A stretch of 64,000 nucleotides of DNA from the sequence record OV876907, one strand, 5' to 3'. Below are positions 20,966-52,144 of the stretch, one piece after another. The notes beneath the pieces were generated by a model. It saw nothing but the letters and a program-made list of their open reading frames with translations, searched no databases and was not told the DNA's origin. The translations under genes were made by a program, and so were the position numbers. Every line of letters starts with the position of its first letter. Within the stretch, counting starts at the first letter, position 1. The DNA comes from Escherichia phage UGJNEcP3.

Positions 20966-21024
20966 AATGTTCTCCTCATGTGTTGATAGGATAGACTATA
21001 ACACGTGAGGAGAGGAAGTAAACA

Positions 21025-21348
21025 CTAATCTTCAATTAAATCTCGGTCATAGCCAAGCTCAATCAAAAGGGATTTGAAGGCAGGAATATTTTCTATTTTC
21101 TTATTATCAACAAAGATTACAGGATAGCGTATAGCTAAGCTCTTGAAGCCGGCACGTTTGGCCAATGATACTATAAGAGGCTTGTCATATACTGCGCCTG
21201 ACGGCGTCTGGTTAATCACAGGATAGAAAGTATGTGGGATAGAAAGGGAATTTAGGAGCGATAGAACTGCAATGCACCCTGGACAGCGCATGACTGCCTC
21301 AGGGATACCGTAAATCTCAATTTTAGTTAACTTTTGGTCCACAGGAAA
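21025..21348 (-). CDS. nrdH: Glutaredoxin-like protein (NrdH-like)
   Basis: CPGC redox motif after KIEIYGIP; start placed at a GTG with AAGGAG 9 nt upstream, because the ORF-track extension overlaps the upstream gene. Confidence 0.6.
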   Translation of the reverse strand, partial: FPVDQKLTKIEIYGIPEAVMRCPGCIAVLSLLNSLSIPHTFYPVINQTPSGAVYDKPLIVSLAKRAGFKSLAIRYPVIFVDNKKIENIPAFKSLLIELGYDRDLIED

Positions 21349-21619
21349 TAACTCCTTGGTAGTCCCAAGTTTTGATAACTTCGTCTTCATTAGTTCCGTA
21401 TGGGACGTAAATCTGGATAAGGAAACCCGTGTCATCAAAAGAGAAATAAACCGTTGGTTTAATACCATGAATCTCTGACAGAGCATAGATGTCCTTAAGG
21501 TCGTCTTCCTTACCTTTAAAGAATTCAGGGTTCAGGTCACAGTCATGGAAGTACCAGTCATTACCGAACTTGTCCCATGCGGTCCAATTCAAAGCTACAT
21601 ACTCTTCAAAACGTTTCAT
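21323..21619 (-). CDS. Hypothetical protein
   Basis: 98 aa ORF. Confidence 0.5.
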   Translation of the reverse strand: MKRFEEYVALNWTAWDKFGNDWYFHDCDLNPEFFKGKEDDLKDIYALSEIHGIKPTVYFSFDDTGFLIQIYVPYGTNEDEVIKTWDYQGVISCGPKVN

Positions 21620-21843
21620 TCTTTCACCTTCATCATTTTAGAAATAACACTATGAACAGCCTGGATTCGTTTGTCGAACTCAGTCCCTTCAAGACCCTTT
21701 TCAGTACTCAATGCACCAATAATAACGAACAGCACTCCAAATGGGATAACCAGGATTAAAAGGCACACAATAAACAGGACAAATGTAATATTGGCCAGGA
21801 TATCAGAAGCAGCATTACGAAATTTATTCATACGATAGTCCAT
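21616..21843 (-). CDS. Hypothetical membrane protein
   Basis: 75 aa with one long hydrophobic segment. Confidence 0.45.
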   Translation of the reverse strand: MDYRMNKFRNAASDILANITFVLFIVCLLILVIPFGVLFVIIGALSTEKGLEGTEFDKRIQAVHSVISKMMKVKE

Positions 21844-21937
21844 GTATTAGTTACAACAAATAACCATTGAGCAGGATACTCAACACCCATGCGCCGGATA
21901 ATATCGTTCATAGATTCGGTTAAGGCATAAAAATTAA

Positions 21938-22411
21938 TCATTTAAGCGATTTCCTCAGTTGTTTTTTAAATGAATCGACCATTTGTTTCTTTGTGTCAGA
22001 TTCATTATAAGTCATTCCGTGTGAAAGCATTTCAGCAATCATTTCTTCCTTACCTAATCTACTGAACTCTTTGGTTTTATCAGGAACGAAATTAGGATGG
22101 ATATTGTTTTCAGTATAATCAGATTTCAGATAGACAAGCAAATTCTCTAACCATTCGAGGTAGTCAACGTTTTGACCTTTAAGACCAGAGCGGTTAAACT
22201 TATGCTTCATTTGTCCTTCTGCGGCATTACACAGGTTGCATAGTAACCCACGAACCTTACCAGCTTTTGGCCCGTTTAATTCGTGGTCATGGTCAAGGTG
22301 GTTGCTTTGAACATCAGGGTTTAATTCACGGGTACAGATTAAACACTTACCATCCTGTGCATCATAAAGTTTTTGTTTTTCTTCTTTGTATAATTTACCA
22401 GTCAACAACAT
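21938..22411 (-). CDS. 49: Endonuclease VII (Holliday-junction resolvase) gp49
   Basis: 157 aa; MLLTGKLYKEEKQKLYDAQDGKCLICTRELNPDVQSNHLDHDHELNGPKAGKVRGLLCNLCN is near-identical to T4 endo VII as recalled. Confidence 0.95.
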   Translation of the reverse strand: MLLTGKLYKEEKQKLYDAQDGKCLICTRELNPDVQSNHLDHDHELNGPKAGKVRGLLCNLCNAAEGQMKHKFNRSGLKGQNVDYLEWLENLLVYLKSDYTENNIHPNFVPDKTKEFSRLGKEEMIAEMLSHGMTYNESDTKKQMVDSFKKQLRKSLK

Positions 22412-22622
22412 AATAAACCCTTACCTGTATTAGATAAGGGTATTTATTAAACATTATAAAATGAGCGATGCAACCGTTTAAATTGACGAATCATCTTTTT
22501 AGTAGGACGAGTATACAATCCAATACAGGTGGCCATAAACTGGTCGGTAGGACTTCCTTTAATAAGAAGTTTCCAGACTTTGTCACCATTTAACTTTTCG
22601 GTATAGACTAATTTAGTTTTCA

Positions 22623-23051
22623 TCAGAATGCCTCATCAGAATAGCGAAGTTGAGCTTCAAGCCAATGGATATAATCAGCTGCGGCAGCAATCAGATTTGA
22701 TTCCTGGTCTGGTAATGAACCGGAATCTGCTAGTTCATAAAGTGAATTCTCAATCAAACGACCTTTATGACGTCCTGGGTGGTGACGTTCTTCAAATTCT
22801 TCAACTTCTTTAAGTTGATTCATTGTGGCATTGCAATAGAAGCACCAGAAGCAAGATTCGCGACTATTTACATGGAGATACACGCCATTCTTAATTTTAA
22901 CAGAAGTAATACCATCCGCATAATCAAGGTCACGAGCGGCAGTGGTAATAACCTTGAATACAACACCCTTCTTCAATTCAGGAAACTGCATCAGCAACTC
23001 TTCATCGTCGGCGATGATTTCAAATACTTTATTCACTAAATTCATACCCAA
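22623..23051 (-). CDS. Hypothetical protein
   Basis: 142 aa ORF. Confidence 0.5.
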   Translation of the reverse strand: MGMNLVNKVFEIIADDEELLMQFPELKKGVVFKVITTAARDLDYADGITSVKIKNGVYLHVNSRESCFWCFYCNATMNQLKEVEEFEERHHPGRHKGRLIENSLYELADSGSLPDQESNLIAAAADYIHWLEAQLRYSDEAF

Positions 23052-23161
23052 ACTCCATATCGATTAAATCATTGTTTGAAGGTTCATTATAATCTATTTC
23101 GGAACCGTTGTAAACCGGTTCCTCTGGCTCGGTAGTTTCCCACCGAGCGACATACCACGGC

Positions 23162-24507: not shown

Positions 24508-25514
24508 TTCAACAGCTCCAGAGCTTGTTCAAGGCGGTCTAAACGATTAGTAGACTCTTCCCAAAGTTTCTTGGCAGCAGTATATTGTCCAGTCAGTTTT
24601 TTGTTAATAGCAAGGGCGTCTTTATACGCTTTTTCCAGAGCAACGACTTCTGGTAACTTGGATTTAGTAATTGGTGTAGGGACCATGATAGGGCTGTTCA
24701 AGTCGTTAATCAAGTCTTCTAATGTAGCAGGCTCTTTATCAGTATTCACAATTTCCTCACATTTTTCTTGGTAAATTTCAGCATCGGTTTTTGGAACATG
24801 ACATTTGATTTCACGGACTGTTACTAAAACTTCATATCCTTTCCAGCCTAAGTGGTGTTTAACTTCTTGGGTCTCATATTTCTCTACGGTATCCATCAGA
24901 GCTAAAGCCTGTTCGATAGTATTCAAGGTATCGTAAGCAATATCTTGATACTTTACAACTTCTGGCTCATCTTTAGGTTTCCGGTTTGGTGACCAGATAA
25001 CGGAAATAAGCACCTTTCCTTTATAGGCGTTTGTTTTAATCATGCAATTTGCCATAGGATGAATGGTGCGGCTATCACCAGCAACTACTGTTTTAGTGGC
25101 GGCTTTGAGGATTAATGCAGAGTTAGCCTTGAATTCAGCGGCCCAACGTTGTGGAAATAAACTACTAGGGTCCATACCTTTAATTTTGACATAACCTTTT
25201 ATGGTATCGCCAAACCATTTGTAGCTAACAACATGGCTAGAACCAGGATATTTCTCTCTACCAAACTCAGAAAGGATGTCCTTATTGACCAGCCGCGAAA
25301 GCAGTCGAGAACCTTTAAATGTATCTACGATATCATTAATAAACAAGCGACCCGCGATCTTTTCGATTTCAGCTTTGAAACAGCGCGATAATGCATCATC
25401 AATTTGGTCGACCCATTTATTGATATTAGAAACTATTACCACATATGGGGTTAATGGAGGGGTATTGGCAGTGATATACGTAGTAAAGGCATTGATGTAT
25501 TCGGTACGAGTCAT
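24504..25514 (-). CDS. Hypothetical protein with C-terminal coiled coil
   Basis: 336 aa ORF; SD GAGGAG; promoter cassette upstream. Confidence 0.6.
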   Translation of the reverse strand: MTRTEYINAFTTYITANTPPLTPYVVIVSNINKWVDQIDDALSRCFKAEIEKIAGRLFINDIVDTFKGSRLLSRLVNKDILSEFGREKYPGSSHVVSYKWFGDTIKGYVKIKGMDPSSLFPQRWAAEFKANSALILKAATKTVVAGDSRTIHPMANCMIKTNAYKGKVLISVIWSPNRKPKDEPEVVKYQDIAYDTLNTIEQALALMDTVEKYETQEVKHHLGWKGYEVLVTVREIKCHVPKTDAEIYQEKCEEIVNTDKEPATLEDLINDLNSPIMVPTPITKSKLPEVVALEKAYKDALAINKKLTGQYTAAKKLWEESTNRLDRLEQALELLK

Positions 25515-25571
25515 GATATTCTCCTCAAGTTGATAGAAAGATTATACTCCATCCGTCCTTGGATGTAAACA

Positions 25572-26477
25572 TTATTTTAGAGCTAATACTGCAGCGCGAA
25601 GCTTATCACGTTGGAGTTCCATGTTCTTGATGCGAATCAATACGTCTTGAATGCTCTTTTTCTCATCTTCAATCTGACCATTTAAACGGTGGATTGATTC
25701 CTGAATGCTATCTGCATAATAGGTCTCAATAGGTTTCATCGTAGGGTTAGTAACAACCAAAGAATTATCAGGTTTAATTTTCCAATGATATGGTTCGGAA
25801 TTGAATGGACTAGGCACAGCAGTGGTTTTGAATTTGTCATAGGCTGCATACTGGGCTACACTGTCACATGATACTGTAGAGGTAGCGATAGATATACGAC
25901 GTTCCATTTGTGGGTCCTTTTGTTGGGATTGATAAGGGGCATAAGACAAAAGATATTCACGAGTTAGTTTAACATTAAAATACACCGCATCAGCCCGTCC
26001 AGAACAATCAGCATATTCATCGGTTGTAACTTTATATGATTCTACGGCCTTAATACGAGTCATTGCTTCTCTGAATAAGGTTTCGAATGCTTCACGAAGG
26101 GCCTTATTACCTTTTGAGGTAGGACGGAAACGAACTTGAATACCGTCAGCCAGAATATTAATGACTAGGTTACGAGCCGTAAAATTAATACTTTTGATAT
26201 TAACAGGAACCGTAGAAATACGTCCTGCGGTAGCCAAGAGGTCTTTGATATTAGCCCGCAATGTTGCACCAAACAGGTGGGCTGGGCAACGGCAATAATC
26301 GTTCAAAGAACCGATATAAGTTCCTTTACGTCCTACACCATAAGTATAATTACCATTACGAATATAGCCAAAGTCGGCTAGCCGATCGATAGCGATACGA
26401 CGAGTCGTGTCATGGTCGTATATAGAGTATTCTTTACGTGTTTTAATGTTCATATTAAAGTCCAAATAATTTTTCAT
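25572..26477 (-). CDS. Hypothetical protein
   Basis: 301 aa ORF. Confidence 0.6.
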   Translation of the reverse strand: MKNYLDFNMNIKTRKEYSIYDHDTTRRIAIDRLADFGYIRNGNYTYGVGRKGTYIGSLNDYCRCPAHLFGATLRANIKDLLATAGRISTVPVNIKSINFTARNLVINILADGIQVRFRPTSKGNKALREAFETLFREAMTRIKAVESYKVTTDEYADCSGRADAVYFNVKLTREYLLSYAPYQSQQKDPQMERRISIATSTVSCDSVAQYAAYDKFKTTAVPSPFNSEPYHWKIKPDNSLVVTNPTMKPIETYYADSIQESIHRLNGQIEDEKKSIQDVLIRIKNMELQRDKLRAAVLALK

Positions 26478-27503: not shown

Positions 27504-27566
27504 AATAATTTCCTCAGTAAGTAATTAAGAACCTAGAACCATTATACCATCCTTGGTATAAAGCGT

Positions 27567-28091
27567 TTATGCGAGAACCGTCTTTAAACGCTCTTCAAAT
27601 TTCTGAAGCAGAACTTGGCGTTCAGCTCGTTGTGATTTGTACTGCTCGATACGACCTGAAGTGAGGGCGTACTGTTCGTTTACTGATTCCCGCATGAATT
27701 CAGGAATCTCTTTACAAGCTTTGATTTCGTCAAACTTATCAATAACAGCTTGTTGTTCAGCAATCAGATTATCGAAATAAGCGATATCAGATTTAACGTT
27801 TGCCAGGTCAGATTCGGTAGGCATTAAACGTTTGTTACGTTCAGCTTGATAAGCTTGATTGGTTTCACGGCTCCAGTGAAGAGTACGTTTTTTGTTAGTG
27901 TTTTTATAGAGCTCTACAATACCAACTGAATCGATGACTGCAATCCAGTTCCAACGGCTTTTGTAAATCTCTCCTCCAGATACGGTAATCTCATTACCAC
28001 AAGCAACGTCGTTAAAGAACTTGCTTTGTTTTTCAGATTTGAAATTACCGTTGTTGAAATTAATCAGTGAAAAAATATCTTTAGCGTTCAT
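27567..28091 (-). CDS. Hypothetical protein
   Basis: 174 aa ORF. Confidence 0.55.
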   Translation of the reverse strand: MNAKDIFSLINFNNGNFKSEKQSKFFNDVACGNEITVSGGEIYKSRWNWIAVIDSVGIVELYKNTNKKRTLHWSRETNQAYQAERNKRLMPTESDLANVKSDIAYFDNLIAEQQAVIDKFDEIKACKEIPEFMRESVNEQYALTSGRIEQYKSQRAERQVLLQKFEERLKTVLA

Positions 28092-28097
28092 GATAAC

Positions 28098-28147
28098 CTC
28101 CAGTAGTTGATAGGTCTATAGTATCATTTCTACTGGAGATGTAAACA
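28098..28147 (-). promoter_or_regulatory. Early promoter cassette, family i (GTTTAC-N17-TACTAT then AGACCTATCAA)
   Basis: Plus strand ttgataggtctatagtatca ... gtaaac (gtaaac at 28141-28146); flanked by a 9-bp inverted repeat ctccagtag / ctactggag. Confidence 0.55.
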
Positions 28148-28148
28148 A

Positions 28149-28490
28149 CTAATAGAAACTTTTTTCACCGGATTGTCCACTAAACCATGCTGATTGGGTG
28201 TTCTCTTTCCGTTGATGTTCAATACGAATGCGATATTCATTCCTGATGGCGCAGAGTTCACCTCGGAAGTCGCCTGCCAACTTTACCTGCTTGCGGTCTA
28301 GATTTATTAAGGCCTGGGTCTTCGCTGCCAAGAGCAGTCTCTTGTAGTCTCCTTCTTCACAATCAGTTTTATAAACTCTATTAGTATATCCATCGATAAG
28401 TTCTTTATCATAGTCCTCGACAGACTGTTTCATGGCTTTGGAAAAAGTCTGACCTGCGTTATAAAGATTGTAAATAAATTGTTCGAACAT
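28149..28490 (-). CDS. Hypothetical protein
   Basis: 113 aa ORF. Confidence 0.5.
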   Translation of the reverse strand: MFEQFIYNLYNAGQTFSKAMKQSVEDYDKELIDGYTNRVYKTDCEEGDYKRLLLAAKTQALINLDRKQVKLAGDFRGELCAIRNEYRIRIEHQRKENTQSAWFSGQSGEKSFY

Positions 28491-28500: not shown

Positions 28501-29481
28501 TTATTTCAGAAGTGTAACTTCAGCGATTTCGCTCCAGTCATTTTTATCGGTGGCAATGAAATCCGCCAGATAAAGAGCTGTACGTAATGATACGTTACGA
28601 AGACGAGATACATTAGCCTTCATCCAGGACAGTGCTTGATAAGTCTCGGCATCAGTCAGACCACGGTTTTGCATCATATCAGTGGACAGGATAACGTCTT
28701 CAACACGAACCATAATCTCTTCGTTAGAGTGAACTCCGAGGTCTAAGTAAACTGAACGAGATACTAAAGCCTGGAGGTGTGGAGCAAGTTTAGTTCCACG
28801 CTCTAATTCACGGTCAATATCAACGTTGGTGATGAACACGATGGTGCCTTCGTATTCGAATTCTTTATCGATATTTTTATCATCAAGGTAAGAACTTGAA
28901 GTGCTCCAGCACACCTTACGTTTTTCACCGGTATCCAATGCTGCTTTTAACAGGTTCAGGATATCCATATCAGAGAATACATCAACATCATCAATAAGAA
29001 GAACACTATTAGGGCCGCGGTTATTCCAAAGCTGCTCGTAAAGACCGATTCCACTAATCTTTCCGTTGATTGATTTATATTCGATAGTTTCATTTTCGTG
29101 GGCATTTTGTAATGCTTTATCCAAAGAGTACGTTTTACCAATACCTGCTGCACCAGAGATGATAAGGGAACGAATTTTACCATCGATGATTCCATTAGTC
29201 ATCATATTCATTACTTTAAAACGTTTGTTGATGCGGTGTTTCATTTCATCCTGGGATTCAGTTACGACTACAGGAGATTCAGTACCTTCCATTTCGATGT
29301 CACATTTGAACACCCATACACCACGTTCAACACCATCAATCTGTACAAATACCTTGCCATCACCGAGATGAGCTTCGGATTCATGAATTTTATTAGGGAA
29401 CCAGGTTTTACCTGAACTCATGAACGTACCAGAGATTTCATTACCGCGATAGATGCCTTTGTTGATTTTGATAGTTAACAT
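28501..29481 (-). CDS. AAA+/P-loop ATPase
   Basis: Walker A GAAGIGKT and Walker B VLLIDDVD; start trimmed to MLTIKINKG (SD GGAGAA) because a promoter cassette lies inside the ORF-track N-terminal extension. Confidence 0.7.
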   Translation of the reverse strand: MLTIKINKGIYRGNEISGTFMSSGKTWFPNKIHESEAHLGDGKVFVQIDGVERGVWVFKCDIEMEGTESPVVVTESQDEMKHRINKRFKVMNMMTNGIIDGKIRSLIISGAAGIGKTYSLDKALQNAHENETIEYKSINGKISGIGLYEQLWNNRGPNSVLLIDDVDVFSDMDILNLLKAALDTGEKRKVCWSTSSSYLDDKNIDKEFEYEGTIVFITNVDIDRELERGTKLAPHLQALVSRSVYLDLGVHSNEEIMVRVEDVILSTDMMQNRGLTDAETYQALSWMKANVSRLRNVSLRTALYLADFIATDKNDWSEIAEVTLLK

Positions 29482-29561
29482 TTTATTCTCCATTTCACTC
29501 AGTAGATTTGATAGGTCCATAATAACATGCTCTACGAGGTTGTAAACACTTTTTTGCACTA

Positions 29562-29590
29562 GACCCAAAAAAGGACCCTTCTGGGTCCTA
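29562..29590 (-). terminator. Intrinsic terminator after the nucleotidyltransferase-like gene
   Basis: Minus strand AGGACCC-AGAA-GGGTCCT followed by TTTTTT. Confidence 0.65.
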
Positions 29591-32143: not shown

Positions 32144-32326
32144 TTATGCTTTCAACTCATTCAGATACTCAACCAAGGCTGCTTTAGAGTTAGCCAAATC
32201 TCGTTTACACTGCTCTATTCCGGAATACGAATAGCCTTCACAATGTTCTACTGCACTATCATAAGAATCACGTTCAATATCAGTAGCAAGTTTAATAATT
32301 TTCTCAATCTGTTCGGTAGTTAACAT
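32144..32326 (-). CDS. Hypothetical protein
   Basis: 60 aa ORF. Confidence 0.4.
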   Translation of the reverse strand: MLTTEQIEKIIKLATDIERDSYDSAVEHCEGYSYSGIEQCKRDLANSKAALVEYLNELKA

Positions 32327-32391
32327 AACTTTCTCCTCATTAGTTGATAGGTGTATAGTATCACGTTCCTAGAGGATGTAAACACTAAAAC

Positions 32392-32420
32392 GAAAAAAGG
32401 TCCCACCGAAGTGAGACCTT
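32392..32420 (-). terminator. Intrinsic terminator
   Basis: Minus strand hairpin GGTCTCAC-TTCG-GTGGGACC followed by TTTTTT. Confidence 0.55.
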
Positions 32421-32423
32421 TGG

Positions 32424-35569: not shown

Positions 35570-36028
35570 TTAAAGATAGATTACTTTCGTGCTGGTTTTA
35601 CCTTCTAAACGTTTAGAGTTAACAAATGCCATACGACATTTAAGGGAATATCCTTTATCAGGATGTTTACGATCTACGGTCATACCTAGCCATAAGGTTT
35701 TATCGGTAATTTCGAGACGCAGTGGGCGATACACCTTACCTGGGACAATTTCAGATTCTACGTCAGGAAGAGGCTCCTGGATTAAAAATTCATGGATTTC
35801 TTTAACATGGTTATGGAGCTTCTTGAACAAAGAGAAAACATATTTTTCGTCAATTTCACGTTGGATAGCACGGTCCAACAAGTGATTAGAGTACTTAATA
35901 AAGAAAGCTGGGACACCGCTCTTAATGGCGGCTTTTTTGATGGACGCGTTAAGTTCACGAAATTCGGTTTCGAACTGACGACGTAATTTGTTGCGGCGGA
36001 TGAATACTTCTGAATTAATTTCTGACAT
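35570..36028 (-). CDS. regB: Endoribonuclease RegB
   Basis: 152 aa; EVFIRRNKLRR...HLLDRAIQREIDE...RLEITD closely matches T4 RegB as recalled. Confidence 0.9.
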   Translation of the reverse strand: MSEINSEVFIRRNKLRRQFETEFRELNASIKKAAIKSGVPAFFIKYSNHLLDRAIQREIDEKYVFSLFKKLHNHVKEIHEFLIQEPLPDVESEIVPGKVYRPLRLEITDKTLWLGMTVDRKHPDKGYSLKCRMAFVNSKRLEGKTSTKVIYL

Positions 36029-36090
36029 TTTATAATCTCCTGTAGTTTATAGGTCTATAGTATCATGTCTACAGGAGATGTAAACTGCTT

Positions 36091-36369
36091 TTAGTATTTT
36101 TCTTCAGGTTGGAAAACGGAACGACAGGCCCACATGGATGCTTCTTTCAAGCGTTCGATTGCCGTACGAATCTGGGCGAGACGTTCATGAGTGAGGTCGA
36201 ATTCTTCATCACTCATTTTATCGACACCTGAGCATGTAAAGGCTTCAACGTATTCTTCTTCTAATGCTTTAAAGATTAAGCCTAATCGAACTTCAGCATC
36301 TTTAATGGCATTCACTTTACCGATTTTATCGTCGGTATGCGGCTTGTAACCTTTGATATCTTCAATCAT
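36091..36369 (-). CDS. Hypothetical protein
   Basis: 92 aa ORF. Confidence 0.45.
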   Translation of the reverse strand: MIEDIKGYKPHTDDKIGKVNAIKDAEVRLGLIFKALEEEYVEAFTCSGVDKMSDEEFDLTHERLAQIRTAIERLKEASMWACRSVFQPEEKY

Positions 36370-37557: not shown

Positions 37558-37857
37558 TTAGAAAGAACCAGAACCTCTAATTGTGTTCTGGCGACCTTTA
37601 TTTTCTAATTCGGAGTGGTCGATTTCATATGCTTGTGCTACGCCAAAGGCCTTTTTAACTTTAGCTAAAGAACCTTTAGATGTAACAATATTAAAAGTAT
37701 TACCTTTGGTAAAATCAACAAAATCGACTTGTACGCCCTGTTTACCGAGGCTTGCTACAATAGCATCAACATATTCTTGGTCTAAATTGCCTTGAACTCC
37801 AATTTGAAATGCTTTAGGAGCTTTGGCTTCTGTGATAAATTCTTGATAAGTTTTCAT
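37558..37857 (-). CDS. Internal-protein-like head protein with capsid targeting sequence
   Basis: N-terminus MKTYQEFITEA matches the T4 IP capsid-targeting sequence (cleaved after Glu by the prohead protease). Confidence 0.7.
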   Translation of the reverse strand: MKTYQEFITEAKAPKAFQIGVQGNLDQEYVDAIVASLGKQGVQVDFVDFTKGNTFNIVTSKGSLAKVKKAFGVAQAYEIDHSELENKGRQNTIRGSGSF

Positions 37858-37900
37858 TGTTATTCCTTAAGTTGATAGAAGTATTCTATCACGGATTTAA

Positions 37901-38317
37901 TTAAGCGTAAATAGCCTTGCCATAATGTTTGTACCAGGTAGGACGCTGTGCAATTTTTTCATCCAAACGGGTCTGAGATATAGCAATAGAAGCTTCGTGT
38001 GGAGTATAGTCACCACGGAATTCCTGAGGAATGTCACTAATGTCCTGGACAGTAGTGTCCTTGATATTAAAACCACGTTTTAAACATTCGGCTATAAGCT
38101 CAATTTGTCGCTTACGTAAAAATTCAAGCTTATCGTAAAAGAATGTAACATGGCCTGTGCCAAGGATAAAAGTAGGACTGATTTTGAAATCACGGACACG
38201 TTTACCATTAGCAACATGCTTACGAACTGCACCGAAAACACGTGGTAATTCACGGTACTCGGCCATTAAGTGTTGGTCAGCCAATTCAGATACTAAGGTA
38301 AGGTTGATACGAGTCAT
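37901..38317 (-). CDS. denV: Endonuclease V, pyrimidine-dimer DNA glycosylase
   Basis: Start trimmed to [34 protein letters not shown]; essentially identical to T4 DenV as recalled. Confidence 0.97.
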
Positions 38318-38377
38318 TTTAGTGTTCTCCATGTTTGTATGAGAACACTATATCACAACTATCGTAAAAATAAACCG

Positions 38378-38680
38378 TTATTTACCTTTAATTGCTTTAG
38401 CTGCTTCGGTAGCCGCTTGCTGAAGGTCATCCATAGACATACCGAATTTAGAAGCAAAGTTATCAATTTTCTTTTCGACAGAATTCAAAGGCTTGGCCTG
38501 TTTACCTTCATTAGCGCCAGGGAGAGCGAGAATACGCTCTTTCTCAATATAAAGGCTTACAAGTTTCTTACGGTCTTTATCTGGCAAATCATGAAATGAA
38601 TGGGCCTTTTTATTTACGGCGGCTTCTAATTTACCTGCAGTTACGCGGGCTTCAGTGATAAATTCTTGATAGGTTTTCAT
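38378..38680 (-). CDS. Internal-protein-like head protein with capsid targeting sequence
   Basis: N-terminus MKTYQEFITEA. Confidence 0.7.
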   Translation of the reverse strand: MKTYQEFITEARVTAGKLEAAVNKKAHSFHDLPDKDRKKLVSLYIEKERILALPGANEGKQAKPLNSVEKKIDNFASKFGMSMDDLQQAATEAAKAIKGK

Positions 38681-38721
38681 ATGTTTCCTTTAAAGGTAAA
38701 TAGGTCTAAGTAATCTCTTTA

Positions 38722-39318
38722 TTAATTACCACGGGCTGCATTAGCAACGGCGTAAGCGTACTGAATATTAGCGTCTTTAAACGTACCTTTAGAGGTATCT
38801 ATTTCTGCCTTAAAGCCGCCTTTAGCCATAACATCAGCAAATTCTTTACGGAAAGTCATTGCATCAAGACCTTTCCATGTTGATTTGTGCTTGGCAAATT
38901 CAAGACCAGCGAAGTTAACTGCTTTAGCCAATTTATTATCAATAGTCCATTTACCTGCTTTAGGTACAAATACCGGACCTTTCTGTTTAGAGAACAGTTT
39001 TAAATTCCAGCGACGAAGGTCACCGTCAGCTTTAACAAAAGCTGCGTCCAAGTTACTAGCAACAACATCTTGGATATGGGCAAATTTAAGTCCATCAGCT
39101 TCAATATTTAGGTCGTTACGCCAGCGAAGTCCTTCCCAGGCGAAAGCTTTAAAGTCGGAAGCTTTTGTAGCCAAGTACCGTTCAATAGGAGCTGTTTTAG
39201 CGTCAAAACCGTTTCCTGGGTTGTCAACGCCGTTTCCTTTGTAAGTCCACTCATCTTTATTAATGCCTTGGACCTTTCCTACAGAAGCTTCGGCGATAAA
39301 TTCTTTATACGTTTTCAT
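38722..39318 (-). CDS. Internal-protein-like head protein with capsid targeting sequence
   Basis: N-terminus MKTYKEFIAEA. Confidence 0.7.
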   Translation of the reverse strand: MKTYKEFIAEASVGKVQGINKDEWTYKGNGVDNPGNGFDAKTAPIERYLATKASDFKAFAWEGLRWRNDLNIEADGLKFAHIQDVVASNLDAAFVKADGDLRRWNLKLFSKQKGPVFVPKAGKWTIDNKLAKAVNFAGLEFAKHKSTWKGLDAMTFRKEFADVMAKGGFKAEIDTSKGTFKDANIQYAYAVANAARGN

Positions 39319-39400
39319 ACGGGTTCCTTAAAGGTAAATATTTTAATTGGTCTGTTCAAGTAACTGTAGATATACTATCACAATTCTAGGAGATGTAAAC

Positions 39401-39799
39401 TTATTTGTAGGTTTTCATCCAATTCTTGAACAAAGCCGCGACGTCTTTCTCTTTAACGTTCAGTTTAACATCCAACATTTTACCACCCGCTGCTCTTGTT
39501 TGGCGAATCTTAGCAGTACCGGTTTCGCCATTCCACTCAACATAATACTGTCCAGTGTTCATTGCAATACCATCGCCGTAGTCTTCGTTTTTAGAAGTGG
39601 TGAAGGCCAGCTTCATAGTCTTAGAGACACGAGCCTGCATGCCTGTCTGAAGAGCATTACGAACGCGAATAACCTGAGGAGTGGCCTGGGTCAGGTTCTC
39701 ATTCAGTTCTTCAGTGAACTCTTCAGATTCAAACATAGCCAAAAGTTCTTTAGATGCAGGAATTACATTCTCTGCGATAAATTCATTATAAGTTTTCAT
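39401..39799 (-). CDS. Internal-protein-like head protein with capsid targeting sequence
   Basis: N-terminus [11 protein letters not shown]. Confidence 0.7.
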
Positions 39800-40280
39800 A
39801 TGCTTTCCAAGTACCTGTTTTAAATGTAGAAATCACGCGCTTAGCACGATTAGGAGTTTGTCTATACCAACGAGATTGGGCCAGGTTAACTGCCGCATCG
39901 TCCCAACGTTTCTGTTGGAGCATACGTAAAGAGTTAGTGAACCCGGCTACACCTGCTTCACCCATCTGGAAGACCATGTTAATTAAAGCACAACGACGAA
40001 CTTCGTCTAATACATCATAAACAGGTTTCAATTTAGGATTACGCAGAATAGCTCTACGAGCATTTTCAACCGATCGATTAAAGAGTTGCTCGGCTTCAGC
40101 CATAGTAATACGACCATTACAAACTCGGCCCATAAGCTTATCAAGTTCAGCACGAGCAACATCTTTAGATGGGTTCTTGGTAACTAACTGGCCAATACCA
40201 ATAGTCCAATAACCTTCGGTGTCTTTATAAAGATTTAAATCAAGACCTTCGTCTTGACGCAACATATCAAAAATATCCAT
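39786..40280 (-). CDS. e: Endolysin (T4 lysozyme)
   Basis: 164 aa; DEGL...[13 protein letters not shown]...[30 protein letters not shown] closely matches T4 lysozyme. Confidence 0.95.
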
Positions 40281-40284
40281 AATA

Positions 40285-40310
40285 CCTCCTGAGTATAGGA
40301 GGTATTTATA
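40285..40310 (-). promoter_or_regulatory. Late promoter TATAAATA plus SD-sequestering hairpin upstream of gene e
   Basis: Minus strand TATAAATA (about 40303-40310) then CCTCC-TATACTCA-GGAGG hairpin whose 3' arm is the Shine-Dalgarno of e. Confidence 0.65.
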
Positions 40311-42276: not shown

Positions 42277-42567
42277 TTACTTTTTGTTGAAAAAGTACAT
42301 TTTACCTTTAGGAGATAAGGATACACGAAGTGCGTTACCAATACCAACTGAACATTTAACCAGGTCAGCAGATTTCAATTCACCAAATGCTTGACGAAGG
42401 TCACCGTCACGAGTGTTAACCATCAGACATTTAGCACCAGCTGCACGAACTTCGTTTAACATGTTGATTGCTTGGTTAGAAAGTTTCATTTTATTCTCCA
42501 TTTCACTCTGTTGTTTTGATAGGTCTATAGTATCACACCTATAGACCTTGTATACTGTTTTATGCAA
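42277..42567 (-). CDS. Hypothetical protein
   Basis: 96 aa ORF. Confidence 0.45.
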   Translation of the reverse strand: MHKTVYKVYRCDTIDLSKQQSEMENKMKLSNQAINMLNEVRAAGAKCLMVNTRDGDLRQAFGELKSADLVKCSVGIGNALRVSLSPKGKMYFFNKK

Positions 42568-43605
42568 TTATTTTTCGAAAGGACGAATTAAATGATGGTT
42601 ATCTTGGAACCGCTTGATGTAGTCATTTTCACCTAGGGTCTTATACATGTTCACTACCGAGTTATAATTCTCGTATGCGTATTCGCGGAACCAACCTGAA
42701 GTGATTGAGGTGCACACTTTCTCAAGAGCCATATAGAAACTTAATGACGGCGAAATATTAAAGTCATTAGGAACCTGTGAACGTTCTAGTGCCAGGACAC
42801 AAGTTTCTTCATACACACCGGCCAATTTAATAGCTTCAGGCAAAGCTTCAAACTTCTCACGAGAGGTCATGACTTCAGAACCATCCTTCATATAAAAGGT
42901 ATATGCAGGGCGCCCTGCCAATGCTACTGCTTCGTGGATGGAGTCATGGTCCAGCGTATAAATGGTATCATTAAAGAATGATGATTTGTTAACGTCTAAT
43001 TTAGGGTGAGAATAGCTCAACGTTTCTTTTTGACGTTGCAACATAATTTCCTGGAGTTCTTCGTTCAGGGTCACGCCTTTATTACGAAGGTATTTGATGT
43101 GGGACATAGTTTTCAAGAAGAACGGATTATTCTTAAGGAAACGATGAGAGGTTTTGATAGCCAGACAGATATCAGGGGTTGCCCAATAGAAACCTGTAAG
43201 ACGGTCCTTTTTAATATGATTTTCAGCATATTTCAGGAGACGATAGCTTGAGGTGTAGTCTTCATCTTGGAGCTCACCGGTAATTTCTCGTACATTAGTC
43301 AGGGCACGGACGATATAAGCTTCGAAATAGGTTTCTTTACCATTATGCATACATTTGAAAGCCTGAACATCAGGATTGTCAACGTGTACATGGGCGCCGA
43401 ACATCCGAGCTTTAAAGTGGTTCCATGAGCCTTGGTCGGCAATGAAATCCCAATCAGAATTTTCGATATACTTATTTTCAATCAGACCTGCGTGGTGCAG
43501 TGCACGAGAACCAATAACTAGCATCATAATATTTTCCTCAGTAAACTTAAATTTCGGCAACGTAAGTATTATGTAATTCCCACATATCATTGGAATTACT
43601 CTCAA
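42568..43605 (-). CDS. Hypothetical protein, possible nucleotidyltransferase fold
   Basis: 345 aa; GSRALHHAG...SDWDF weakly fits G-S-x(n)-D-x-D; start uncertain. Confidence 0.5.
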   Translation of the reverse strand: MRVIPMICGNYIILTLPKFKFTEENIMMLVIGSRALHHAGLIENKYIENSDWDFIADQGSWNHFKARMFGAHVHVDNPDVQAFKCMHNGKETYFEAYIVRALTNVREITGELQDEDYTSSYRLLKYAENHIKKDRLTGFYWATPDICLAIKTSHRFLKNNPFFLKTMSHIKYLRNKGVTLNEELQEIMLQRQKETLSYSHPKLDVNKSSFFNDTIYTLDHDSIHEAVALAGRPAYTFYMKDGSEVMTSREKFEALPEAIKLAGVYEETCVLALERSQVPNDFNISPSLSFYMALEKVCTSITSGWFREYAYENYNSVVNMYKTLGENDYIKRFQDNHHLIRPFEK

Positions 43606-46583: not shown

Positions 46584-47177
46584 TTACTTAAGTGAATTAA
46601 TGTAGTCTTCGATATCAGCAGAAGTCGTATCCATTCCAACTTGCGGGCCTTTAAACGTTTCTACGCGCATCAGGGTGTCTTCGATATCAATCTTGGTCAG
46701 TGCAGCAATTTCAACAACATCGTCGGCAGTAGCAATACCAAGGGCAGCCATATTACGAGTTTCACGAATGTACTCAAGCTTAACCGCTAGTTCCTGGCGA
46801 GAGTCATCAAGTTCCTTGACCTTAAGCTTAATTTCATTACGCATTTCAACATAATCATCGGCTTTCTTACGAAGTTGAGTAGCCGTACGACGATAAAGGA
46901 GGCCGAGTTTAGCATGTACCTGGACATCGGCACCTTCTTTAATCAGTTTACGAATTTCGCGTTCTTTGGAACTAGCCAGTTGGTCCTTTTCGTTAGCGAG
47001 TTCACGAATACGTTTTTCTTCATTCACAGACTTAACATGGGCAGTCTGGAGCTCAGTGATTTTATCAATCAAGGTAGAAGCAGCTTTAGTATACTGGTCT
47101 TCAATTGACAGGTTCTGAGCCATTGCGGTACCCAGTTTAGAACGAATGAATTCAACGAGTTTCTTTAAAGTGTTCAT
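46584..47177 (-). CDS. Hypothetical coiled-coil protein
   Basis: 197 aa, heptad-rich, followed by a UUCG-loop hairpin. Confidence 0.55.
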
Positions 47178-47255
47178 AGTATTTCCTTCAGTTGGTTAAC
47201 GTTTTGTAATCCATGAGGACATTATACCCTGTCCTCTGAGGGTTGTAAACATTTT

Positions 47256-47654
47256 TTATTTCATTTTTGCGAGGCAAATTTCATTGGCTTCCCATTGAGC
47301 TTGCTTAATAATAGCTTTGGATACAGGAGCCCTTTGGCCATAAGTTTTTGACGTTGAGAGAACAATACATTTGTTTGCTTCATTATGCCAGCCCCATGAT
47401 TTTTCGCCATGGGTGCCTTTAACTACAGCTGACACCTCAACAGAGCAACCACCATCAGAAATCTTGGTTTCGACAATCCATTCATTTCTCTCAACAGCTT
47501 CAATTTCTAATCTAGTTTTTTCTTCATACATCGCGGCCCAATCAGTTTTTGCCAAGTTGAAAGTAAGAGCTTTCTCTAATTCTTTGGCATATTTTTGTTG
47601 TTCAGGTGTTAATGAATTATACAACTCTTGCATTTCTTTATCTTCGATATTCAT
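47256..47654 (-). CDS. Hypothetical protein
   Basis: 132 aa ORF; promoter cassette upstream. Confidence 0.5.
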   Translation of the reverse strand: MNIEDKEMQELYNSLTPEQQKYAKELEKALTFNLAKTDWAAMYEEKTRLEIEAVERNEWIVETKISDGGCSVEVSAVVKGTHGEKSWGWHNEANKCIVLSTSKTYGQRAPVSKAIIKQAQWEANEICLAKMK

Positions 47655-47712
47655 TATGTTCTCCTCAAATTATGGGCTCATAATATCTTAATCATGAGCC
47701 CATGTAAACGTT

Positions 47713-47991
47713 TTATTTCATATTATTGAAATAATTTTCTGCATCAAAATCATTACCATGGTAAACTTTGGTAGACGATTTGGCGTAACCTTCAGCTGAG
47801 AACATATTAATCACAACTTTAATTGTATACCACTGTCCATCTTCATTACCCATTACTGCATAGGTTTCATACACCGGGTGTTCAGGACCGATAACTTTAA
47901 TATCGTTAACTGTAGCACCAAATTCTTCCGGAACACATTTCATAAAGAAATTAAACACTTCACCATAATTATCCATTTTACTCTCCTTCAC
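47713..47991 (-). CDS. Hypothetical protein
   Basis: 92 aa ORF. Confidence 0.45.
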   Translation of the reverse strand: MKESKMDNYGEVFNFFMKCVPEEFGATVNDIKVIGPEHPVYETYAVMGNEDGQWYTIKVVINMFSAEGYAKSSTKVYHGNDFDAENYFNNMK

Positions 47992-48065
47992 ACTGTTGTT
48001 TTGATAGGTCTATAGTATCATGTTCTACGAAAGAGTAAACATCTTTTTTAAACTTTTTAGAAACA

Positions 48066-48098
48066 AAAAAGGCCCAACCTTTCGGAAGGGCCTAGAAT
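48066..48098 (-). terminator. Intrinsic terminator (GAAA loop)
   Basis: Minus strand AGGCCC-TTCCGAAAGGTT-GGGCCT followed by TTTTTT, directly after the stop at 48098. Confidence 0.6.
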
Positions 48099-48696: not shown

Positions 48697-49161
48697 TTAT
48701 TTGATTTGTTTAGCGGACCAGATACGGTCTTTGATGATTTTCTGAATATCTTCAACATACTCTAAGTCGTGAGCATGCGGATTATCTTTGAAGCTATGTG
48801 CTCGTGCCAGTTTCTGGCCTTCTGTTTTGATTACTAAAAGCTCTTTAAGAATTGCTTCATACTTAGAAATAATTCCTTTGGCGATATTTTTTTCTTGAGC
48901 GGCTTTAGGGTCCGCTTTTGTAGCAGGTGCTTTACCTGTAGCTTTCTGGAACAATTCACCTGATGCAGCTAGGCTTTTAAAAACTCGGCTAACAGTATTA
49001 GCATTAGTAAAACCTTCGGCTTTAAAATCTCTAATAAAACGGAAACGTTCTTCATCAGAGGCGTCTTTGTAAGAATATTTACCTGCTTGAATTGCTGCAA
49101 TCGCAGCGGCTTTTACATCTGAACTAGATTGTTCAGTCAAAAATTCATTGTAAGTTTTCAT
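48697..49161 (-). CDS. Internal-protein-like head protein with capsid targeting sequence
   Basis: N-terminus MKTYNEFLTEQ. Confidence 0.65.
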   Translation of the reverse strand: MKTYNEFLTEQSSSDVKAAAIAAIQAGKYSYKDASDEERFRFIRDFKAEGFTNANTVSRVFKSLAASGELFQKATGKAPATKADPKAAQEKNIAKGIISKYEAILKELLVIKTEGQKLARAHSFKDNPHAHDLEYVEDIQKIIKDRIWSAKQIK

Positions 49162-49202
49162 TATTATTTCCTAAGTTAATTAACTTATCTATTTATTATG
49201 CC

Positions 49203-49235: not shown

Positions 49236-49282
49236 TTGCGGCAACCTTGTCGGGGTTCCACCTGCTAGGCAAGTGTTTGTAC

Positions 49283-49611: not shown

Positions 49612-49686
49612 TGGTATCCCGCCCTGGGATCGAACCAGGACCGCAAACTTAGAAGGATCGTATGCTATCCATTACACCAGCGGGAC
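49612..49686 (-). tRNA. tRNA-Arg (anticodon UCU)
   Basis: 75 nt; manual cloverleaf with 7-bp acceptor stem, T-loop TTCGATC, anticodon loop CUUCUAA, CCA encoded. Confidence 0.8.
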
Positions 49687-49691
49687 ATAGT

Positions 49692-49769
49692 TGGTGACCC
49701 GGACCAGATTTGAACTGGTAACCTTTCCCTTATGAGGGGACTGCTGCTAACCAATTGAGCTACAGGGCC
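49692..49769 (-). tRNA. tRNA with anticodon CAU (Met, or Ile if lysidinylated)
   Basis: 78 nt; acceptor GGCCCUG pairs with CCGGGUC, T-arm CCAG-UUCAAAU-CUGG, anticodon loop CUCAUAA, CCA encoded. Confidence 0.75.
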
Positions 49770-49774
49770 TTAAT

Positions 49775-50656: not shown

Positions 50657-50934
50657 ATATTAATGTAATCAAGTTTAATAGAAGCAATCTTCAAAGGATT
50701 TTTAAAGATGTCGTATTCGATCAATCCATTTTCAGTTGCGGTATAAAAAGTAAAGTTAACAGAATTATAACGATGGCTGTTAACTTTGAGTTTAACATCG
50801 CTTGAACTACGGCCAATATTAACCTGTTGAACATCAAGCACAGCATCTTTGCCGTAATTTCGAATCAACAACTCGGCTGCAACCTGGTCTGAATTATAGC
50901 CGTTCTCCGGATTAGTAACCTTAACGTATAGCAT
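50644..50934 (-). CDS. Hypothetical protein
   Basis: 96 aa ORF. Confidence 0.45.
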   Translation of the reverse strand: MLYVKVTNPENGYNSDQVAAELLIRNYGKDAVLDVQQVNIGRSSSDVKLKVNSHRYNSVNFTFYTATENGLIEYDIFKNPLKIASIKLDYINMWPQ

Positions 50935-51363
50935 TTAACCCTCGTCTACAATAGTGTGGGTATTGGCATTAACAATTTGCCACCAGTCAAAACGATTGGA
51001 CCCATATTGAGGTGTATTCTCGTTTTCTTTAATGATATCACGTAGTTCATCTTCAGTAGCAGCTTTTGCGATTAAGTCGGCATAGCCGCCGCGAGGATAA
51101 TAGTTATCACCTGCGAAAAGTAAAAAGTTTGGTTTGATATTATTGAACTCTTCAAGAGTAATAACCGTTCCGTTTGGTTGAACAATATCTACATAACTAT
51201 ATCCTAATTTCTGAGCTTCGGAAACCGCTTCAAGCAGGGTATCATGGGCCCATCCAATTTGACAATCGGGTTTTTCGGATGGATTAGCTTGGTAGTCCGC
51301 ATACACTTTATACATTTTACTCACCTTTAGAGATTTTATCCATAACAAAAGAGATTGAACCAA
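50935..51363 (-). CDS. Hypothetical protein
   Basis: 142 aa ORF. Confidence 0.5.
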   Translation of the reverse strand: MVQSLLLWIKSLKVSKMYKVYADYQANPSEKPDCQIGWAHDTLLEAVSEAQKLGYSYVDIVQPNGTVITLEEFNNIKPNFLLFAGDNYYPRGGYADLIAKAATEDELRDIIKENENTPQYGSNRFDWWQIVNANTHTIVDEG

Positions 51364-51514
51364 TTAAAAATGCCACTACTAAAGAGATTATATTCTCGGA
51401 AGTTGAAAGCATATCGAGCATGAATCCTGCAAACATACTAAAGCCAAAAGCAGTAACGGCGGCCAGTGCAGTAACATTTCTAATTAATTCACAACGTTTC
51501 ATTTTATTCTCCAA
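51317..51514 (-). CDS. Hypothetical membrane protein
   Basis: 65 aa, two hydrophobic segments. Confidence 0.4.
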   Translation of the reverse strand: MENKMKRCELIRNVTALAAVTAFGFSMFAGFMLDMLSTSENIISLVVAFLIGSISFVMDKISKGE

Positions 51515-51570
51515 TCACTCATTTGTTTTGATAGGGCTATAGTATCATCACTAGAGCCCGTTGTAAACAA

Positions 51571-51843
51571 TTATTTTAGATAAATTGCATACTTTTTATA
51601 ACCAGCCGTTTCGTGACGCAGTCCTTTTTCATTAGCAAAACGTTCAATATTGTTAATTTGATTCTGGTCGAGTTCTGAAGTATCAAAAACAAAAAAGTTT
51701 CGCTTATTGCCTAAAGTTACGTGATTAGTCAAATCAATGTTATAGAGATGATTTATATTATCAATCATAGTCTTAACAGATTTGTTAATTTTTACTTCTT
51801 CATTAAGAATAGATTCAGCGATAAATTCTTGGTATGATTTCAT
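51571..51843 (-). CDS. Internal-protein-like head protein with capsid targeting sequence
   Basis: N-terminus MKSYQEFIAES. Confidence 0.65.
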   Translation of the reverse strand: MKSYQEFIAESILNEEVKINKSVKTMIDNINHLYNIDLTNHVTLGNKRNFFVFDTSELDQNQINNIERFANEKGLRHETAGYKKYAIYLK

Positions 51844-51844
51844 T

Positions 51845-52066
51845 TTATTCTACGCCCGCGGCTTTCAAAAGTTTTTTAAGATTGGCAGTGCCTTGAGCAG
51901 AAAATGTGACCTTGCCGCCTTTTTCGCTGATGCTCCCAGTCAATTTAGCAAGTTTATCACTAGAGACTTTTTTAAAATCAGCCAATGTACCGTCAAAGGT
52001 TTTTGTAACAACCGGCAGTTGGTCATGTTTTTTAGCTTCTGTAATAAATTCTTGATAAGCTTTCAT
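51845..52066 (-). CDS. Internal-protein-like head protein with capsid targeting sequence
   Basis: N-terminus MKAYQEFITEA. Confidence 0.65.
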   Translation of the reverse strand: MKAYQEFITEAKKHDQLPVVTKTFDGTLADFKKVSSDKLAKLTGSISEKGGKVTFSAQGTANLKKLLKAAGVE

Positions 52067-52144
52067 TTTGATTTCCGTTTGGTTAGTTTGTTTTGATAGG
52101 TCTATAGTATCACGCCTATAGACCTTGTAAACACCTTTTTTAAA

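Follow-up and report, generated by a model that had tools for sequence, protein, structure and literature searches.

Repeated early-promoter cassettes of a Dhakavirus genome carry promoter-specific stem-loops, some of which are predicted to mask ribosome-binding sites on read-through RNA

Why does the early region of a T4-type phage repeat the same short block of DNA in front of many of its genes, and what is the use of the inverted repeats that span the −10 element in several of these blocks? The question was raised by a stretch of 64,000 nucleotides from Escherichia phage UGJNEcP3 (sequence record OV876907), referred to here as the window. A sequence-only reading had described a family of early-promoter cassettes between positions 20983 and 52133, and had proposed that their inverted repeats could be operators, processing sites on read-through transcripts or recombination hotspots. 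From the analysis presented here, the cassettes are probably early promoters of the promoter-early stem-loop (PeSL) type which are substrates of genetic exchange, with stems that act on RNA read through from upstream promoters.

A 10-kb piece of the window displayed 100% identity to Escherichia phage UGJNEcP4 and 90–97% identity to JS10, WG01, QL01, IME341 and other Dhakavirus phages (Tevenvirinae), which form the JS98/JS10 group. Based on the annotation of JS10 and on Pfam matches to the open reading frames of the window, the interval holding the motif was located in the minus-strand early region, with the gene order 55.x, 49, nrdC, mobD, tk, vs, regB, denV, ipIII, e, tRNA, 57B. In T4-type genomes, this is the early region classically known as hyperplastic. 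Plus-strand baseplate genes follow from about 54 kb onward.

Cassettes are named by the position of their promoter −35 element, and the ATG is given separately. The core of the motif, TTGATAGGTCTATAGTATCA, was detected eight times with at most three mismatches, always on the plus strand (28107, 29508, 32344, 36046, 42516, 48001, 51528 and 52093), and never in 100 dinucleotide-preserving shuffles. Nine sites with a common core had been listed previously. Eight of them are true copies; the ninth, at 20983, is a diverged one that has only TTGATAGG and the promoter hexamers in common with the others. The positions given for the copies were off by up to 16 bp (36030 for 36046) and by 0–10 bp elsewhere. 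The list was also incomplete, as eight further promoters of the same architecture, which lack the 20-mer and had been overlooked, were obtained with a looser search (47709, 47250, 39400, 38375, 37912, 25570, 19902 and 6966). The window thus contains 17 cassettes, every one on the minus strand and 55–82 nt 5′ of a Shine-Dalgarno sequence (SD) and ATG. Sixteen of them lie in the hyperplastic region at 19.8–52.2 kb and one separates gene 43 from imm; no cassette falls in the block of baseplate genes at 54–64 kb. An independent repeat finder recovered the cassette as families of 75–91 nt (D2, D4, D5 and D6). In IMG/VR, the exact 20-mer was located in 57 stretches, nearly all of them from about eight complete genomes of ~170 kb with 10–13 copies each.

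On the coding strand, the elements follow each other in a fixed order: an A-rich UP element (for example AAAAAAGGT or AAAATAATT 5′ of the −35), GTTTAC, a spacer of 17–18 nt ending in TGn, TACTAT, AGACCTATCAA, a short A-rich leader, an SD of the GGAG type and the ATG. The start block conserved across cassettes is (A)GACCTATCAA. The −35 element is exactly GTTTAC in 14 of the 17 promoters and deviates by one mismatch in three, the spacer measures 17–18 nt in all 17, and the −10 boxes (TACTAT, TATAAT, TATTAT, TATAGT, TAGTAT and TAGAAT) follow the pattern TAnnnT. An extended −10 (TGn) occurs in 12 of the 17 promoters, all nine sites listed earlier among them. The spacing first noticed between the core and gtaaac was confirmed, since the minus strand reads GTTTAC-N17-TACTAT; exceptions are the N18 spacer at 51568 and the −35 GTATAC at 42555.

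The T4 early consensus has GTTTAC at −36 to −31 and an A-rich stretch at −40 to −44 (Nolan et al., 2006, PMC1524935), and T4 early promoters combine UP, −35, TGn and −10 with extra conserved positions down to the start site (consensus of Wilkens and Ruger, in Hinton, 2010, PMC2988021). Ten such promoters were found in the homologous region of T4. In T4, the denV promoter even has the very same 20-mer, together with identical stem arms, and the core is therefore the −10/+1 part of a family-wide early promoter rather than a novelty of Dhakavirus. The early-promoter reading is well supported by the orientation, the downstream SD-ATG, the A-rich UP element, GTTTAC, TGn and the −10, which all correspond to the T4 early consensus. 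By their sequence, the cassettes are assigned to the T4-type sigma-70 early promoters. Identity with the T4 denV promoter region suggests that they would be active immediately after infection and independently of phage protein synthesis, with a putative transcription start taken as 7 nt after the −10. A generic sigma-70 scan of the window did not yield promoter-like matches more often than in shuffles, and such matches are uninformative by themselves. In none of the 25 Dhakavirus records matching the regB cassette (window 36032–36106) is a promoter or regulatory feature listed under the match, which falls under or beside coding-sequence features only.

The 3′ end of the cassettes also corresponds to a known signal. 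RegB, together with S1, has the strong cleavage-site consensus GGAGRAYARAA (Durand et al., 2006, PMC1702504). The SD block of the cassettes, GGAGAATAAAA, fits it without deviation at 42555, 51568 and 29547 and comes close to it at several further cassettes, and the SD or 3′ end of several cassettes, GGAGAATAAAATG, matches this consensus. Such a match is in keeping with a rapid inactivation of early mRNAs.

The inverted repeats were then evaluated by comparing the best RNA duplex of each spacer with its own −10-to-ATG region to the duplexes of non-cognate combinations. For the 17 cassettes, the cognate duplexes summed to −183.5 kcal/mol against −124.9 ± 11.1 kcal/mol after permutation, and none of 20,000 permutations was as low. 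The same test in T4 gave −119.6 against −69.4 ± 8.8 kcal/mol, again with 0 of 20,000 as low. The inverted repeats are genuine, and each is particular to its own promoter. Promoter-specific stems of 6–13 bp are present in 10–13 of the 17 cassettes. The 10-bp inverted repeat quoted in the sequence-only reading is exact (AGGTCTATAG at 42521 and 52098, CTATAGACCT at 42539 and 52116). In other copies, as had been overlooked there, the spacer pairs with the SD region instead of the −10 block. Two classes were thus distinguished.

In class A, the partner of the spacer is the discriminator together with the end of the −10, and the hairpin encloses the −10 and leaves the ribosome-binding site (RBS) open. 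Six cassettes belong here. Cassette 52132 (52064..52157; −35 GTTTAC at 52127–52132, core 52093–52112, ATG 52066), upstream of an internal-protein-like gene (MKAYQEF...), has its arms at 52116–52125 and 52098–52107, and cassette 42555 (42487..42580; −35 GTATAC, core 42516–42535, ATG 42489, SD GGAGAATAAAATG) at 42539–42548 and 42521–42530. In cassette 51568 (51500..51593; −35 at 51563–51568, N18 spacer, ATG 51502, SD GGAGAATAAAATG) the hairpin GGGCTCTAG/CTATAGCCC occupies 51551–51559 and 51534–51542, and both arms have changed relative to 52132 (GGGC/GCCC versus GGTC/GACC). Cassette 47709 (47652..47734; no 20-mer, −10 TATTAT, ATG 47654) forms a 13-bp hairpin of 47691–47703 with 47672–47684. Cassette 47250 (47175..47275; −10 TATAAT, ATG 47177 of an e.6-like gene) has the hairpin GAGGACA/TGTCCTC, and in one IMG/VR genome its place is taken by a core-type cassette. 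Cassette 19902 (19830..19927; −10 TATAAT, ATG 19832) carries GGGACCA/TGGTCCT with a G.U pair.

In class B, the upstream arm pairs with the SD region. In the regB cassette 36085 (36026..36110; core 36046–36065, ATG 36028), an 11-bp stem is formed by ATCTCCTGTAG in the spacer (36069–36079) and CTACAGGAGAT at the SD (36035–36045). The nrdC.8 cassette 28146 (28089..28171; core 28107–28126, ATG 28091) pairs ATCTCCAGTAG (28130–28140) with CTACTGGAGGT at the SD (28096–28106), including one U.G pair. The gene 55.6 cassette 21023 (20963..21048; the diverged site at 20983; −10 TATAGT, CTATCCTATCAA, ATG 20965) pairs CTCCTCACGTGT (21001–21012) with ACACATGAGGAG (20972–20983), with one mismatch. In the denV cassette 38375 (38315..38400; GTTTAT/TATAGT, ATG 38317), the 5′ arm TGTTCTC (38341–38347) lies between the −10 and +1, and the 3′ arm GAGAACA (38323–38329) overlaps the SD. 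The loops are about 23 nt long in the three cases with a spacer arm and about 11 nt at denV. Whether in the spacer or, at denV, downstream of the −10, the upstream arm is always 5′ of the predicted start.

Orthologous cassettes of Dhakavirus are 90–100% alike and show little covariation, and the signal comes from paralogous cassettes and from other lineages. The ungapped comparison of orthologues was uninformative at indels and was replaced by an extraction anchored on the downstream gene. Among 15 distinct cassettes from several genomes, the class B helix of 11 bp is 98.2% paired, with compensatory changes at two positions (AG, TG or AT in the spacer with CT, CA or AT downstream) and one U.G pair on the sense strand; its covariation score was reached by none of 500 shuffles. 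A separate observation was made upstream of regB in Klebsiella phage Boboto (~140–245), where a class B helix (TTTCCTT/AAGGAGA) holds within it a class A hairpin (GGGCCAT/ATGGCCC) surrounding the −10, so that a single promoter can combine the two types of stem.

Another proposal is that the palindromes are operators at which a dimeric phage protein shuts off the early promoters, or that the start block is the site of such a factor. The shut-off of T4 early promoters is not fully explained in the literature, two cassettes do have a perfect 10-bp palindrome centred near −14, and the core contains TGATA-N9-TATCA. Against this, the arms vary from one cassette to the next in sequence, length, centre and loop size and covary inside each cassette, TGn and the −10 suffice to explain the TGATA half, and the palindrome AGGTCTATAG is found in only two of the 17 promoters. 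The operator, which the sequence-only reading had considered, does not agree with arms that differ in sequence and position, and is regarded as very improbable.

As one arm lies upstream of the predicted start, the hairpin would form only on RNA that arrives from a promoter further upstream and never on the cassette's own transcript. The distribution of terminators is informative in this respect. An upstream terminator hairpin with a T-run was found at three cassettes, in which the embedded stems are weak or missing. Cassette 32383 (32324..32408; core 32344–32363, ATG 32326; only a weak bulged stem) is directly preceded by a canonical intrinsic terminator on the minus strand (32396..32421) with an 11-bp stem, a UUCG loop and a T-run. 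Cassette 29547 (29479..29572; core 29508–29527 with three mismatches, ATG 29481 of nrdC.10, SD GGAGAATAAAATG; weak bulged stem) likewise directly follows a canonical minus-strand terminator (29572..29589, AGGACCCAGAAGGGTCCT and T5). Directly 5′ of cassette 48040 (47974..48065; core 48001–48020, ATG 47976; no strong embedded stem), a terminator-like minus-strand hairpin with T6 (AGGCCC...GGGCCTTTTTTG, 48064..48093) was read from the sequence; it escaped the terminator consensus scan owing to its long loop. Promoter-specific stems occur in none of these three cassettes and in ten of the 14 others (hypergeometric p ~0.05). That stems and upstream terminators appear as alternatives suggests that the stems deal with read-through.

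The same alternation would be expected if the stem-loops were themselves terminators or attenuators insulating the cassettes from upstream transcription, which is the original interpretation of PeSL. In its favour, one PeSL stem-loop of RB49, inserted downstream of a promoter and in front of lacZ, cut expression as much as rrnB T1 (Arbiol et al., PMC2839356). The lacZ assay, however, cannot separate termination from effects on translation or stability. None of the embedded stems has a U-tract, their tails being AUCAAAACAA or similar, and the class B loops reach 23 nt. The terminator scan of the window called no embedded stem and did find the true terminators at 32396–32421 and 29572–29589. By these sequence criteria, termination is an unlikely function for the embedded stems.

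Processing of polycistronic read-through RNA by RNase III or another endonuclease was also weighed. The hairpins would exist only on read-through RNA, are intergenic and lie beside AU-rich sequence, and T4 mRNAs are known from the literature to be processed by RNase E/G and RegB. RNase III substrates are typically of about two helical turns, ~20 bp or more of largely double-stranded RNA. Stems of 6–13 bp are far below this length, and the Rfam scan of the whole window returned two tRNAs only and no RNA family at the cassettes. Secondary structure is moreover reported to protect against RegB cleavage and not to promote it. Of the idea that the repeats act on read-through RNA as processing sites, the action on read-through RNA is retained as the best reading, in the form of RBS masking or insulation, and cleavage by RNase III is highly improbable.

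For class B, the predicted effect is a masking of the RBS. It was expressed as the energy cost of freeing the RBS (−14 to +3) on read-through RNA and on the cassette's own transcript. The predicted values were 18.3 against 2.9 kcal/mol for nrdC.8 (28146), 14.9 against 2.7 for 55.6 (21023), 14.0 against 1.6 for denV (38375) and 11.0 against 1.7 for regB (36085). The difference between both RNAs was 4.7–5.6 kcal/mol for nrdC.4 (25570), imm (6966) and the gene at 42489 (42555), and approximately zero for class A cassettes. Masking is thus predicted to be strong in four of the 17 cassettes and moderate in three; no RBS mask was predicted in the other ten. Shuffling the spacer abolished masking for regB, nrdC.8 and 55.6. 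In T4, regB (18.2 against 0.6 kcal/mol), nrdC.8 (15.8 against 0.6) and denV (11.9 against 0.4) are predicted to be masked on read-through RNA only. The arm sequences of regB and nrdC.8 in T4 differ from those in the window.

Hairpins that hide the RBS on long transcripts are established for T4 e, soc, 49 and I-TevI, where an internal late promoter gives a short translatable transcript (Uzan and Miller, 2010, PMC3014915). Applied to 102 minus-strand genes, the calculation flagged gene e (12.9 kcal/mol) and gene 49 (15.7 kcal/mol), which were used as positive controls; at both genes (40278–40310 and 22409–22449, respectively) a late-promoter-like box, TATAAATA or TAATAAATA, is followed by a hairpin pairing with the SD. 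Apart from these, a 195-aa membrane-protein gene (e.2-like) with its ATG at ~41573 and no cassette nearby was observed to have its RBS and AUG buried in local structure, a strong hairpin (GGAGGGCTGGTAATGGCCCTTT) whose opening takes 15.6 kcal/mol. Its start overlaps the stop of the upstream gene, and the combination of overlap and hairpin may indicate translational coupling.

The strongest evidence for selection on the pairing was obtained from regB. The region upstream of this gene was examined in T4, the phage of the window and eight further lineages (n = 10). A mask was present in Kanagawavirus (17.6 kcal/mol on read-through RNA against 1.4 on the own transcript), Gelderlandvirus (22.0 against 1.4) and Biquartavirus (7.5 against 1.8). 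In Jiaodavirus (9.1 against 1.6) a class A hairpin is nested in the mask, in Serratia phage 4S (16.4 against 2.5) the arms lie over the AUG and the first codons, and in Gaprivervirus (13.6 against 0.9) the −10 region itself is the 5′ arm. Marfavirus has a class A hairpin only and no mask; Krischvirus has neither a mask nor a promoter of its own for regB. The mask is thus found in eight of the ten lineages, with arms that are not homologous in sequence and whose position varies. With strongly occluded RBSs at a base rate of ~10% of genes, the binomial tail for 8/10 is 6e-7. Since a mask recurs in 8/10 lineages with unrelated arms, it is the pairing itself that appears to be selected. From the literature, regB has a typical early promoter, shut off after 2–3 minutes, and is under tight post-transcriptional control, with an SD whose GGAG is cleaved by RegB unless structured. 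The conserved mask fits this knowledge of regB control.

These data also weigh on a DNA-level origin of the inverted repeats without any RNA function, either as by-products of quasi-palindrome templated mutation or cassette recombination, or as cruciform or endonuclease VII targets through which recombination would be stimulated. The cassettes clearly recombine and homogenise, and in the covariation of paralogous cassettes DNA pairing and RNA pairing are indistinguishable. Templated correction of quasi-palindromes is reportedly established in T4 from Ripley's rII work. The regB mask is difficult to reconcile with such an origin: across eight of ten lineages the arms are unrelated and differ in position, and what they pair is always the SD or the AUG, which points to selection on what is paired. 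The wobble pairs are mostly sense-strand pairs (~5 G.U versus 1 C.A), fitting RNA and not a two-stranded cruciform, and the 5′ arm consistently lies upstream of the start site. A DNA-level origin is considered distinctly unlikely.

The exchange of cassettes is directly visible. When the window was compared with JS10, WG01, IME341 and phage 04086, 29 of 118 indel endpoints fell inside cassettes, which span 5% of the region (~5-fold enrichment by length). In JS10, precisely the gene flanked by cassettes 48040 and 47709 is missing, with a hybrid of both cassettes at this place, and the segment between 51568 and 52132 is replaced. Gene insertions of ~200 bp were detected in relatives at cassettes 52132, 36085, 32383 and 29547. 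In the nrdC.8 promoter of JS10, a patch of the spacer is identical to that of another cassette and breaks one stem pair. Finally, which cassette precedes denV or the e.6-like gene depends on the phage, and the alternatives are not homologous. The guess of a recombination hotspot thus received direct comparative support from the hybrid cassette, the promoter swaps and the indel junctions inside cassettes.

Other short repeats at gene starts were observed alongside. The 55.6 gene (58 aa; 20938–20978) and the 132-aa gene at 47654 (47627–47667) share 88% identity over the SD and first ten codons (41 nt), and the JS10 crossover that deleted the gene between 48040 and 47709 falls in this SD region. 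Seven minus-strand genes (starts at 37826–37879, 38649–38702, 39287–39340, 39768–39821, 49132–49180, 51812–51865 and 52035–52088) begin with an MKTYQEF-type N-terminus and a similar RBS. This leader presumably resembles the capsid-targeting leader of T4 internal proteins, and at the corresponding places the annotation of WG01 lists Ip7, Ip9 and an internal head protein. It represents a second homology stretch that could mediate exchange. Another short repeated gene-start module, with near-identical RBS and first codons (ACTGAGGAAATTATTATGTCACAAGC...), is present at 19816–19847, 27487–27518 and 43511–43542; two of the three are without a promoter core.

Taken together, each cassette would be a self-contained expression unit from the UP element through the ATG. 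The ~75–90 bp of common sequence would make cassettes substrates for homologous exchange, which would keep the copies alike and move genes and promoters in and out. In class B (regB, nrdC.8, denV and 55.6, with nrdC.4, imm and the gene at 42489 as weaker cases), the second arm would be the SD or the AUG, so that the RBS and the RegB-sensitive GGAG would be masked on read-through RNA. Only promoter-proximal transcripts would then be translated, and protein synthesis would be tied to the short life of the early promoter. The role of class A stems is uncertain; they may insulate the leader, or act as 3′/5′ stabilisers after processing. The predicted mask at regB, denV and nrdC.8, which does not depend on a given sequence, is the most interesting part of this scheme.

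A more far-reaching proposal is that the anti-SD arm in the spacer or discriminator of early promoters is a conserved, selected device across T4-like phages, by which genes are translatable, and their GGAG cleavable by RegB, from their own promoter only; carried on read-through RNA (delayed-early or middle), that cistron would be silent and protected. This proposal is put forward tentatively, with a confidence that falls just short of even. No description of RBS masking by arms embedded in early promoters was found in the searchable literature, older T4 papers being outside its reach.

Several points weigh against the explanation as a whole. Masking is limited to a subset of cassettes (four strong and three moderate of 17), and as a group the cassette genes are not more occluded than others (Mann-Whitney p = 0.90; 102 minus-strand genes). 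Both the start site and the read-through RNA are assumed, and the denV mask depends on the exact start. Pairing is not strictly kept, as arm mismatches or chimeras occur at nrdC.8 of JS10, at 21023 (C.A) and at 51568 (C.U). The compensatory changes among paralogues could stem from copying of whole cassettes or from quasi-palindrome templated DNA repair, and the terminator-like effect reported for one RB49 stem-loop (Arbiol et al., PMC2839356) may, for all that sequence criteria show, extend to these stems. When distinct indel events are counted, ~11 of 31 touch a cassette, compared with 21% of gene junctions carrying one, a modest enrichment.

The remaining cassettes show the same promoter with less conspicuous stems. 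Cassette 39400 (39316..39425; TGn, TAGTAT, ATG 39318) precedes an ipIII-like internal protein gene, and cassette 37912 (37855..37937; ATTTAC, TGn, TAGAAT, start block CTATCAAC, ATG 37857) an internal-protein-like gene with the MKTYQEF start; neither has a significant stem. The nrdC.4 cassette 25570 (25512..25595; TATAAT, CTATCAAC block, ATG 25514) and cassette 6966 (6902..6991) have the moderate predicted masking on read-through RNA mentioned above. The latter is located directly 3′ of gene 43 (DNA polymerase, 6969–9680) and would drive imm (6668–6904). Elsewhere in the early region, the minus-strand tRNA locus (49615–49769) contains two tRNAs according to Rfam, compared with three annotated in JS10 (Arg, Asn, Met) and eight in T4, and carries large indels relative to all four relatives compared.

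How do these cassettes relate to systems already described? With T4 early promoters they share the UP element, GTTTAC at −36 to −31, TGn, the −10 and the extra conserved positions down to the start; in contrast, the −10/+1 block is near-invariant in eight copies, which is more uniform than in the T4 promoters examined. The likeness to RegB/S1 target sites covers the 3′ end of the cassettes and does not account for the promoter core and the stems, and the masked GGAGs would be expected to resist RegB.

The published PeSL cassettes consist of an early promoter, a stem-loop and an SD-ATG; they cluster in hyperplastic regions, with copies next to gene 43 (Arbiol et al., 2010, PMC2839356; Comeau et al., 2014, PMC4122927). 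Insertions, deletions and replacements take place through them, and chimeric cassettes are left behind (PMC2839356, PMC4122927). The formation of mini-circles through recombination of neighbouring cassettes also counts among the features of the class. The repeats analysed here agree with them in the repeated AT-rich upstream region, strong early promoter, stem-loop, SD and start codon, in the hyperplastic location with small downstream genes of unknown function and one copy beside g43, and in the indels and replacements between close relatives, including a gene deletion between two cassettes that left a chimera. They belong to the PeSL class, here in Dhakavirus. PeSL were described in detail for RB49/phi1, T4/PST and KVP40/nt-1, with JS98 mentioned for the g43 locus only. 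The Dhakavirus members differ by a T4-type promoter (GTTTAC...TGn TACTAT) with an unusually long invariant −10/+1 block, and by stems that are mostly A/U-rich, have no U-tracts and pair the spacer with the −10/discriminator or the SD. None of the five published stem-loop positions is a spacer-to-SD helix, and the published function is termination (PMC2839356). The cassette would be the unit by which T4-like phages express and exchange accessory early genes; its recognition helps to annotate Dhakavirus promoters and explains where gene gain and loss occurs. Both the cassette class and the principle of masking were already known, and the advance is in this sense incremental.

Class B cassettes are predicted to work like the hairpins of e, soc, 49 and I-TevI, although strictly they are not members of that group. 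In both, the SD or AUG is paired on long transcripts and the 5′ arm lies upstream of an internal start, and the predicted opening energies of 11–18 kcal/mol are comparable with those of e and 49 in the window. The internal promoter is an early sigma-70 promoter here and a late gp55 promoter (TATAAATA) there, and the predicted logic is to translate only while the early promoter fires instead of only late. If masking is true, it would offer a simple and testable account of why RegB and several further early proteins are made only in the first minutes after infection. The PeSL stem-loops would then have a translational role rather than that of terminators, and they would represent the early-gene counterpart of the late-promoter hairpins of e, soc and 49.

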